Shown piece after piece: positions 47,275 through 49,053 of a stretch of DNA of 64,000 nt. The DNA is from Raillietiella orientalis (Eukaryota): positions 1-64,000 of the forward strand of contig JAYWIR010000073.1 of assembly GCA_036172245.1 (NCBI GenBank), written 5' to 3'. The notes beneath the pieces are model-generated. The model searched no databases and was not told the origin of the DNA. It saw only the letters and a list, made by a program, of their open reading frames with translations. Numbering within the stretch: position 1 is the first letter of the stretch; every line of letters starts with the position of its first letter. The position numbers and the translations under genes were made by a program.

Positions 47275-49053
47275 TCAATTGGACCTGCGGGAATGAACGC
47301 ACTCGAAGGACATTTCGGTGCAGTAAGTGAAATCGATCCCGGGCACGTCGCTGCTGGAGCCCATGCAGGCGGTGGCGAAGCTCCTGAGATCGTTGTTGCG
47401 CAGGTAGCTCGATATGTGCTCGGCACAGTGGCACGGCAGGACGGGGTAGCTACTGCCCCGAAGGAAGAGGAAGGCGTCGTTGAAGAGCTGCATCAGCCGG
47501 TTCCTCAGGGCTCCTCTGCGGAACTGGCTCTCGATCATGCCGGCGTACACCGGGAAGCGGGCCCTGAGACCCCTTTTTCCCGACCCGAGCAGCTTGGCGA
47601 GGCTGGGGTTCCTGGTGTAGGCGGCCAGCTTATTGCCGCTCCCGATCAGCACGTCGAAGAACGAGAAGCTGTCGCCGATCCTGGAGACTTTTAGCTTCTC
47701 GATCTCCCTGCAGCACTCGATCCGGAAGGCCGCCAGGTCGACGGGCCTGCAGCTCCGGATGAGATGCAGGTTCCGCCTGCTCACGAAGGCACCGCAGAAC
47801 ATGAGCTTCACGATGTGCTGGGTCAGGAACTTGGCTATCCACTCCTGGACGCACACGGAATGACGGACCGCAGTCCCCAGGTTGTTTGGTCTGGACAAGG
47901 GCGGGTACCTCCAGCTGTCGAGGACCGCGTCCAGGACCGTCTTGCCGAACCGGTCGACCATGTTGACGTCGCACCCGTTCTCTAGCAGGGTGGACACGAG
48001 CGACATGTTGCCCGCTACGGCGGCGACGTGCAGCGCGGTTCCGCAGTTCCGGAACTCAGCGTTGACGTCGGCGTTGTATTCGAGCAGGACCTTGGCCACC
48101 TTGTCGAATTCCTTGAGGGCGGCGATGTGCAGTGCGGTCATCCCGTTCCTGTGTCTGGCGTTTACGCTCGCCTTGTGGTCCAGGAGGAGCCGCACCAGTT
48201 CCGGCACCCCGCTCTCGGCTGCCATGTGCAGCGCACTTTTCCCTTCGTCGCTCCTGGCGTTGACGTTCGCCCCGTGCTCCAGGAGCAGCCTGGCCACCTT
48301 GATCTTCCGGTGCTTGCAGGCGGTGATCGCGTCGATGCAAGAGTTGACTTCCGCCTCGTACAGCAGAAGGCACTGGACTGGTTTCTCGCTGCCGTAGACG
48401 GTGGCGAGGAAGAGCCGGATCGCGCCAAAGTTGGTCTTGCGAAACACGAAGGCTCCCTTGCTCAGGAGCAGCCGGATGACCTTCTCGCACTCACTGATGG
48501 CGGTGTAGTGAAGTGGAGTGTAGCCTTCCTTCCACGTCGAAGGATTCACTTGGGCCCCGAACCCCAACAGGTCCTCGACGATTTCGGGGCACCCCTTCTT
48601 GGCAGCAAGGTGAAGGGCCGTCATCCCGGTCTGGTCCACAGCGTCAGGGTGGGCGCCGTTCATGAGCAGCAGCCGAACCATGTCCACCTGCTCTCTCGAC
48701 GCGGCGATGTGGAGGGCGGTGGACCCGGTCTCGTTCGGTGCGTTTACCCTGGCGCCCTTCCGCAAGAGCAGCTCCACGATGTCCTCGTTGGCATATCGAG
48801 CGGCGACATGCAGTGGCGCCTCGCAAGGTATCCGGCCCTCGTTGTTGACCTTACATCCGCATCCGGTCAGTAGGCGGGCCACGTCGAAGTGCCCTCTCCT
48901 TATGGCTTCGCGCAGCAGCGCGCATCTTTCAGACCACGTCCTGATGTAGGACAGGTCCACGGAGTCGATCAGCTTCTTCACTCGTTCGGTTCTTCCCTCG
49001 TGAACCGCGCTCGACAACTCCTTGCACCGCCACATGTTCCTCAACCTTTTCAT
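47275..49053 (-). CDS. Ankyrin-repeat protein with a C-terminal PRANC/F-box-like domain (592 aa, intronless)
   Basis: About 10 ankyrin repeats (PLHVAA, TALHIAA, TALHLAA, TPLHYTA, SALHMAA, TALHVAA); C-terminal C.REIEKLK..SFFDVL..KLAAY..FPVYAGMI..RG..R..LPCHCAEHISSYLRNNDL. Confidence 0.92.
   Translation of the reverse strand: MKRLRNMWRCKELSSAVHEGRTERVKKLIDSVDLSYIRTWSERCALLREAIRRGHFDVARLLTGCGCKVNNEGRIPCEAPLHVAARYANEDIVELLLRKGARVNAPNETGSTALHIAASREQVDMVRLLLMNGAHPDAVDQTGMTALHLAAKKGCPEIVEDLLGFGAQVNPSTWKEGYTPLHYTAISECEKVIRLLLSKGAFVFRKTNFGAIRLFLATVYGSEKPVQCLLLYEAEVNSCIDAITACKHRKIKVARLLLEHGANVNARSDEGKSALHMAAESGVPELVRLLLDHKASVNARHRNGMTALHIAALKEFDKVAKVLLEYNADVNAEFRNCGTALHVAAVAGNMSLVSTLLENGCDVNMVDRFGKTVLDAVLDSWRYPPLSRPNNLGTAVRHSVCVQEWIAKFLTQHIVKLMFCGAFVSRRNLHLIRSCRPVDLAAFRIECCREIEKLKVSRIGDSFSFFDVLIGSGNKLAAYTRNPSLAKLLGSGKRGLRARFPVYAGMIESQFRRGALRNRLMQLFNDAFLFLRGSSYPVLPCHCAEHISSYLRNNDLRSFATACMGSSSDVPGIDFTYCTEMSFECVHSRRSN

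Follow-up and report, generated by a model that had tools for sequence, protein, structure and literature searches.

Is a long open reading frame (ORF) that has stayed unbroken in repeat-rich DNA a maintained gene, and if so, what might its product do and where did it come from? This question is raised by a locus at positions 47275..49053 of a 64-kb stretch of DNA (contig JAYWIR010000073.1, positions 1 to 64,000; called the window in the following), for which an original prediction had proposed a horizontally acquired, intronless gene coding for an ankyrin-repeat (ANK) protein with a C-terminal PRANC domain. Our analysis makes it likely that the locus is an intact, intron-free ANK-PRANC gene resident in a repeat-rich eukaryotic genome of high guanine-plus-cytosine (GC) content, that its product would most likely serve an SCF (Skp1-Cul1-Rbx1) ubiquitin ligase as substrate receptor, and that it represents an old copy from an exchanged gene pool.

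The gene is real and unbroken. It consists of a single exon on the minus strand that covers 47275..49053 including the stop codon (47275-47277), with the coding part at 47278-49053, and contains 592 codons from the first ATG plus the stop, as defined by the ORF listing and the GC content of the codon positions. From stop to stop the frame comprises 613 codons and is the longest of the 64-kb window, followed by frames of 534, 431 and 385 codons, and base composition alone would lead to only ~5e-8 frames of this length in the window. The ORF has a GC content of 61.7%, with 57, 43 and 85% GC at codon positions 1, 2 and 3, respectively, compared to 50-57% GC in the flanks. The value at the third position (GC3) of 85% also differs from the 60-71% found in the decayed ORFs of long interspersed nuclear elements (LINEs) in the same window. 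The observed/expected ratio of CpG is ~1 throughout the ORF and its flanks, and the window as a whole has ~55% GC and is not depleted of CpG. The description as a single GC-rich ORF of 592 codons without an intron is confirmed by these data, down to the exact coordinates, the rank as longest frame and the GC content of 61.7%.

At the protein level, five parts can be distinguished, all encoded on the minus strand. Residues 1-382 (47908..49053) form an ankyrin-repeat array, which is supported by Pfam, by matches in the PDB, by the AlphaFold model and by a 99-nt periodicity in the DNA of the array (repeat families D1, D2 and D5). Pfam Ank_2 matches the ANK-PRANC protein with an E-value of 8.9e-102 in eight stretches over residues ~10-380, and the sequence matches in the PDB (ankyrin-1/2, DARPins, TRPA1 and others) all lie within residues 11-380. 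In the AlphaFold model, which was calculated from an alignment of 20 family members and reaches a mean predicted local distance difference test (pLDDT) of 81.1 and a predicted template modelling score (pTM) of 0.69, the array is composed of 11 helix pairs and a capping helix, starting with the helix at residues 2-19 and ending with the one at residues 373-382. This agrees well with the "about 10" repeats counted originally. The proposed likeness of the N-terminus to Wolbachia proteins turned out to be unspecific, as the pattern L..AV..G..E.....I is the consensus of all 20 aligned members, be they insect-labelled, unnamed or from Wolbachia. The array is followed by a linker (residues 383-397; 47863..47907), which is predicted to be disordered (pLDDT <50 at residues 386-397), and by the all-helical PRANC domain (residues ~398-565; 47359..47862), assigned by phmmer, a family profile, a sub-threshold Pfam match, the predicted fold and a match to phage WO. 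The last part of this domain is a truncated F-box-like end at residues 539-565 (47359..47439), which according to the family alignment and the AlphaFold helices consists of the LP dipeptide and two helices (residues 541-550 and 553-565). The C-terminal tail (residues 566-592; 47278..47358) is predicted to be disordered (pLDDT 29-48) and is not conserved, being without an aligned consensus.

Four lines of evidence settle, at the level of sequence and predicted fold, that the C-terminal domain is a PRANC domain: i) a phmmer search, ii) the behaviour of the relatives in Pfam and profile searches, iii) a match to phage WO and iv) the fold of the model. In the phmmer search, the C-terminal 212 residues were compared with 1.84 billion representative proteins and yielded 485 matches at E<=0.001, 69 of them at E<=1e-10; the best match had an E-value of 8.6e-22 and 36% identity, and the matches were nearly always positioned at the C-terminal end of the relatives, whose lengths vary widely. 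Such an exhaustive HMMER search was needed to find the relatives, while a word-index search with the C-terminus gave no match. Concerning the relatives themselves, 34 of the 40 top phmmer matches contain Pfam PRANC with E<=0.01 and 19 of the 40 reach the gathering score of this model, six are without a PRANC match, and nine have weak F-box or F-box-like matches at the aligned place. A profile built from the 19 Pfam-passing relatives, with the query excluded, scores the query with 130 bits (E 2.3e-39, residues 404-564) and matches no other of the 652 window frames of at least 60 residues. As the third line, tblastn against phage records matched only three records of Wolbachia phage WO, with 37% identity and an E-value of 1e-24. 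The matching gene in KX522565.1 (WOVitA1), gwv_1092, is annotated as 'ankyrin repeat with PRANC domain protein', shares with the query the architecture of an ANK array followed by a C-terminal PRANC domain (the 37% identity extends over 164 residues in the region of this domain), and is described as the PRANC member of the eukaryotic association module of phage WO (PMC5062602). For the fourth line, the C-terminal domain in the AlphaFold model (pLDDT 78.1) was compared with BFVD using Foldseek, which resulted in four matches at E<=0.001 with a probability of 1.00. In the top 50 of this search, all 33 named entries are from poxviruses, most of them annotated as ankyrin-repeat or PRANC proteins, and the other 17 are unnamed; this fold comparison is one between predicted models on both sides and includes no solved structures. 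Two further searches added little to these four lines: the best score in the ESM Atlas with the C-terminus was an uninformative 0.83, and a profile search of the PDB with the family alignment gave a match limited to half an ankyrin repeat at the start of the profile.

Conservation within the domain points in the same direction. The query keeps all 15 invariant columns of the family and 38 of the 44 nearly invariant ones, including 16 of the 20 nearly invariant columns in the PRANC part. The motif LPCHCAEHISSYLRNNDL at residues 539-556 of the 592 aligns with the family consensus LPxxCxEKIFSYLSNxDL, and the invariant residues P540, C543, Y550, L551 and L556 are all retained in this F-box-like end. 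The C-terminal motif LPxxCxEHIxSYLxNxDL of the original prediction is thus found where it had been placed. Its naming of the protein as ANK-PRANC is also upheld, as the relatives from insects, Wolbachia and phage WO belong to the PRANC proteins. The same searches addressed the two outcomes that had been named as speaking against the prediction: instead of a lack of PRANC and F-box matches there is clear PRANC homology, and the relatives are not a vertically inherited metazoan ANK/SOCS family.

How could such a protein work? Based on the analogy with ANK/F-box proteins of poxviruses and Orientia, we propose that the product would be a substrate receptor of the host SCF ubiquitin ligase. It joins ~11 ankyrin repeats via a short flexible linker to a helical PRANC domain of ~170 residues, which ends in a two-helix truncated F-box. 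Docking on Skp1 may be mediated by the terminal LP together with the two helices, and a target protein may be bound in the concave face of the ankyrin array, to be either ubiquitinated or sequestered. A role as SCF adaptor is most likely because the order of the parts and the two terminal helices after the conserved LP match the poxviral ANK/PRANC proteins. The latter are described to bind Skp1 via a truncated two-helix F-box and to be able to replace cellular SCF1 substrate receptors, with the ankyrin array holding the target (PMC4353913). For the query, we infer Skp1 binding, ligase recruitment and any target from this analogy, and we lean slightly towards the assumption that the protein would indeed bind Skp1.

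The comparison with known systems illustrates how far this analogy reaches. The ANK/F-box (PRANC, PF09372) host-range proteins of chordopoxviruses share the domain order and the predicted C-terminal fold with the query, as exemplified by a template modelling (TM) score of 0.75 on a 127-residue buffalopox fragment with a probability of 1.00 in BFVD. Both have two helices at the C-terminus, described for the poxviral F-box (PMC4353913) and predicted by the model for the query. However, the sequences are only 15-26% identical when aligned by structure, the pox-centred model of Pfam gives 12.3 bits, and the query gene is cellular, not viral. The Ank effectors of Orientia tsutsugamushi likewise contain ANK repeats and a C-terminal F-box/PRANC-type region, a likeness by description only, and Orientia Anks are described to interact with the SCF1 complex (PMC4148323). 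A comparable logic is found in the metazoan ASB proteins (ANK plus SOCS box, adaptors of Cul5), which also combine an ankyrin substrate array with a small C-terminal cullin-adaptor box. In contrast to these, Pfam gave no SOCS-box match for the query, neither with the full-length protein nor with its C-terminal part, and its C-terminal domain is homologous to PRANC instead.

Several observations weigh against the interpretation as an ANK-PRANC protein that works as an SCF receptor. On the C-terminal 212 residues, Pfam PRANC reaches an E-value of only 0.22 and 12.3 bits compared to a gathering score of 25.8 bits, which is an operational threshold of one model and not a biological feature; this sub-threshold alignment spans profile positions 2-94 of 97 (residues 461-558). 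With the whole protein there is no Pfam PRANC match at E<=1, and neither of the F-box models PF00646 and PF12937 matches the C-terminus at E<=10. Ankyrin repeats 7-8 (residues ~209-268) are degenerate in sequence, and the query departs from the family in six of the 44 nearly invariant columns, one of them in the region of the F-box-like helices (S552 to R). A PRANC domain does not guarantee Skp1 binding either, given that the PRANC protein FPV012 is described as not binding Skp1 (PMC4353913). Finally, tblastn detected no paralog of the ORF within the 64-kb window, and no solved structures similar to the PRANC domain were found (Foldseek against the PDB at E<=0.001; VIA-align wide at Z>=5). The F-box assignment rests on the alignment of the motif and on predicted viral models because no solved structure matches, but a new fold cannot be concluded from this absence.

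Some of these points also favour a different explanation, namely that the gene is a silent relic in repeat-rich DNA, with a frame that is open by luck or youth and a product that is not expressed or no longer functional. The degenerate repeats 7-8, the six changed positions and the sub-threshold Pfam score would be expected of a relic, as would the fact that no other recognisable non-transposon gene is present in the 64 kb. However, without selection one would hardly expect 613 codons to stay open, given the ~5e-8 frames expected, and the LINE frames nearby, which are of comparable age, have been disrupted. The pattern of 85% GC at the third versus 43% at the second codon position is that of a maintained coding sequence, the 15 invariant columns and 16 of the 20 nearly invariant PRANC columns are kept, and the model folds confidently (pLDDT 81). 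We consider a relic quite improbable on these grounds.

Turning to the genomic setting, the 64 kb are repeat-rich eukaryotic DNA in which nothing but the ANK-PRANC gene and pieces of transposons can be recognised as coding. Our Pfam scan covered 226 of the 234 window frames of at least 110 residues, the remaining eight being the ANK frame itself and seven frames overlapping it. Matches were obtained in four of the 226 frames, and all of them are pieces of LINE endonuclease or reverse transcriptase at 1-5388, split over different frames and strands. They belong to two broken LINE copies with apurinic/apyrimidinic (AP) endonuclease and reverse transcriptase at 1-2591 (plus strand) and 3598-5388 (minus strand), identified by Pfam Exo_endo_phos and RVT_1 on the four frames. 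Self-BLAST additionally revealed decayed LINE-like copies at 6564-7390, 19801-21125 and 24322-24709, and none of the dispersed repeats from this search touches 43000-53000. Neither an Rfam family nor a spliced-leader relic of the dinoflagellate type was found in the window. The claim that every other recognisable coding sequence is broken is therefore supported weakly: the four Pfam-positive frames are all broken LINE pieces, but most of the window is unrecognised and need not be transposon. "Transposon graveyard" is a fair description of one part of the window and a conjecture for the remainder.

This setting bears directly on another explanation, according to which the locus is a recent Wolbachia or phage WO insertion or a bacterial contamination of the assembly. 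The closest annotated relatives do include Wolbachia and phage WO proteins, and insertions of this kind exist in insect assemblies, as seen for rows from Eurosta and Temnothorax. Nevertheless, identity to Wolbachia and phage WO proteins is only 34-37%, and the 64-kb stretch, which is free of any N, contains eukaryotic LINE elements and no bacterial gene among the 226 scanned frames. Moreover, Wolbachia genomes have a low GC content of ~35%, whereas the ORF has 62% GC and 85% GC3. The original argument that raw Wolbachia contamination does not account for the gene is borne out by this composition and by an identity of at most 37% to every Wolbachia or phage WO protein tested, and the explanation is already contradicted to such an extent that we regard it as exceedingly improbable. 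Rather, the copy appears to be old in its present genome. A recent insertion does not fit because identity to every relative is below 40% and the codon use is strongly biased to the GC-rich state. The query also differs from the phage WO and Wolbachia ANK-PRANC genes in that it lies in eukaryotic, LINE-bearing DNA, has a GC3 of 85% and forms a long branch with no supported link to the Wolbachia rows.

Which organisms harbour the relatives? Named ones come from the insects Pseudomyrmex, Lasius, Temnothorax, Halictus, Lasioglossum, Andrena, Leptopilina, Microplitis, Eretmocerus, Trichomalopsis, Bemisia, Ceutorhynchus, Eurosta and Ctenocephalides, and, outside the insects, from the brine shrimp Artemia and from Wolbachia. 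Matches over the full length are ~30-34% identical (e.g., Eurosta with 33% over 96% and the 610-residue Wolbachia protein P0179 with 34% over 93%), and the best identity to any relative is 36-39%, with none above ~39% among the 1.84 billion representative proteins. A search of Joint Genome Institute (JGI) metagenome contigs gave only an unrelated ankyrin match of 26%, and viral contigs gave no match. The family profile matches 35 of 60 genomes of the genus Wolbachia, and in a sample of 201 genomes of Rickettsiales, Pfam PRANC matches only four, in each case below the cut-off.

To place the query among these relatives, trees of the PRANC region were calculated with FastTree for 181 rows and with IQ-TREE (quick, with a mixture model) for 56 rows. 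The smaller set was picked from the larger one and comprised every named row, the rows from Wolbachia and 21 of the top matches, leaving out the long-branch Wolbachia rows L020 and L036; neither tree includes poxvirus or Orientia sequences, and the chalcids are represented by two rows only (Trichomalopsis and Eretmocerus). In neither tree does the query have a supported sister or belong to a supported clade. It is located at the unresolved base of a mixed group of arthropod, unnamed and Wolbachia rows, apart from eight Wolbachia rows (Shimodaira-Hasegawa-like approximate likelihood ratio test, SH-aLRT, 94, not starred), its terminal branch amounts to 1.1-1.6 changes per site, and its amino-acid composition deviates (p<0.001). 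Of the checks that had been suggested to follow up the locus, the homology searches yielded PRANC relatives, and the phylogeny, with no supported sister, points to no donor and no direction of transfer. The original interpretation is thus upheld in part, namely for the family and against contamination, and a domesticated gene of symbiont or viral origin is a conjecture.

A side observation from the tree of 56 rows concerns three insect-labelled proteins, P0156 and P0159 (Eurosta solidaginis) and P0157 (Temnothorax longispinosus), whose PRANC regions are only 0.04-0.2 changes per site away from a Rickettsiales/Wolbachia-type protein (locus L001, from a Rickettsiales metagenome-assembled genome). 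They are encoded on contigs of 309 Mb and 20.7 Mb and give the impression of Wolbachia DNA that entered insect scaffolds of chromosome scale very recently. These recent-looking copies contrast with the ANK-PRANC gene studied here.

Lateral acquisition of ANK-PRANC genes by insects is described in the literature. The PRANC genes of Nasonia and the CLANKs of chalcids are described cases, together with recent acquisitions in Pseudomyrmex, Bemisia, Ceratina and Microplitis (Pers and Lynch, 2018, PMC6161386). Proteins of Pseudomyrmex, Microplitis, Bemisia and chalcids are also among the matches to the query. Like the query, the acquired insect genes are eukaryote-resident, nuclear ANK genes with a C-terminal PRANC or PRANC-like region, and in many CLANKs, according to the description in PMC6161386, the PRANC part is unannotated by Pfam and seen only with more sensitive searches, again as in the query. 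In contrast, the named insect proteins are at most ~38% identical to the query in the PRANC region, and the query groups with no insect clade and is not joined with support to the two long-branch chalcid rows. Furthermore, the genomes of insects with such genes and of Artemia are much less GC-rich than the genome of the query.

In this context, one has to consider that the family may be a native eukaryotic one, which arose in arthropods or another eukaryote and was inherited vertically, with the copies in Wolbachia, phage WO and poxviruses being the acquired ones, so that no transfer would have taken place here. The composition of the gene is fully host-like, and the query branches at the unresolved base of a mostly arthropod-labelled clade of 48 rows, of which 24 are arthropod-labelled and two come from Wolbachia genomes. 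The named relatives span Hymenoptera, Hemiptera, Coleoptera, Diptera and Siphonaptera as well as the crustacean Artemia. Besides, the PRANC sequence of phage WO is described as closer to invertebrate than to bacterial sequences, and an animal origin is discussed (PMC5062602). However, the distribution among the named arthropods is patchy, several insect-labelled proteins are near-identical to a Rickettsiales protein, which indicates that transfer into insects occurs, and the profile finds matches in 35 of the 60 Wolbachia-genus genomes. The published interpretation for Nasonia and others is a transfer from Wolbachia (PMC6161386), and the intron-free state is what would be expected of a bacterial, viral or retrocopy origin. 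Taken together, we judge vertical inheritance of a native family to be somewhat unlikely. Instead, we favour a lineage that would stem from a pool of genes exchanged between Wolbachia with its phage WO, poxviruses and arthropods.

An intron-free gene would be expected from a bacterial or viral origin and from a LINE-made retrocopy alike, and the LINEs in the window make it necessary to consider the second route. Under this explanation, the gene would be a processed copy, made by LINE-mediated reverse transcription from a parental ANK-PRANC gene that contains introns and is located at another place in the genome. A coding sequence of 1.8 kb without an intron would fit, as would the LINE endonuclease and reverse-transcriptase elements and the presence of repeats that are up to 99.6% identical in the window. 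On the gene strand, a run of 13 A residues (A13) follows 906 nt after the stop (46356..46368, minus strand), and the 10-nt word GAAGAGCGAA occurs just after A13 and again 334 nt before the ATG, which could be read as a poly(A) relic and a flanking duplication. However, the flanking similarity is not above chance, with a best local alignment score of 23 compared to 23.5 +/- 2.5 in 300 dinucleotide shuffles, of which 184 reach the score of 23. The window contains eight runs of at least 10 A or T residues, A13 being one of them, AATAAA is absent ahead of this run, and it is not supported as a poly(A) relic. We consider a retrocopy, which finds no support in these features, unlikely.

Some further features of the window can be noted in their own right. 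Upstream of the gene, three copies of a 28-nt unit are located at 49767-49899, 49 and 56 nt apart and with 75-93% identity, ~700-850 nt before the ATG; they could be a regulatory repeat or a remnant of a transposon. The region 36790-42285, together with 10911-12156, 26729-27848, 28946-30212 and 32049-32424, is a mosaic of dispersed repeats, with pairs of 1246 bp (99.6%, inverted; 41040-42285 and 10911-12156), 1121 bp (98.8%), 1267 bp (91.9%) and 376 bp (94.7%). These repeats contain no frame with a Pfam match and are probably young non-autonomous or unknown elements. The GC content swings from 35.5% in 52001-54000 to 61-66% in 54001-58000, and short internal direct repeats are present at 53084-53964. 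The reverse-transcriptase frame of the first LINE (1434-2591, plus strand) has a 73%-identical relative (P0266, 619 residues) on a 2.9-kb JGI metagenome contig and almost no other match in the word-indexed collection (one further weak match), so that some environmental sample must contain an organism related to the source. Atlas clusters for this reverse transcriptase are labelled Chordata or Bacillariophyta, based on very few records.

What does the gene add to the picture of the family? Judged by its sequence, it is a deeply diverged further member of the known ANK-PRANC family, which is common to Wolbachia, its phage, poxviruses and insects. The idea of lateral transfer itself is not new, as acquisition of ANK-PRANC genes by insects is already published (PMC6161386, PMC5062602). 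We found no literature title on nuclear PRANC genes outside insects, which was judged by titles and is no claim of absence. As a tentative suggestion, the ANK-PRANC module may have arrived long ago and independently in a eukaryotic lineage of high GC content, perhaps a non-insect one, outside the described insect groups, where the gene would have been kept intact and taken on an extreme host codon bias while its surroundings decayed.

The present evidence adds a member to the family and not a principle, and its value hinges on the source organism and on expression; interest would rise if the host belonged outside the described insect groups, or if the gene were expressed and conserved. Few protein modules illustrate as clearly as ANK-PRANC the movement between bacteria, bacteriophage, eukaryotic viruses and animals, and in Nasonia such acquired genes are described as wired into embryonic patterning (PMC6161386). 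A diverged, host-adapted and intact copy in another genome would be a data point on the age and breadth of this exchange and on whether hosts keep such genes as ubiquitin-ligase adaptors. If the suggestion of an old, independent arrival is true, the network of PRANC exchange between symbionts, phages, large DNA viruses and hosts would be both wider and older than the Wolbachia-to-wasp cases suggest.

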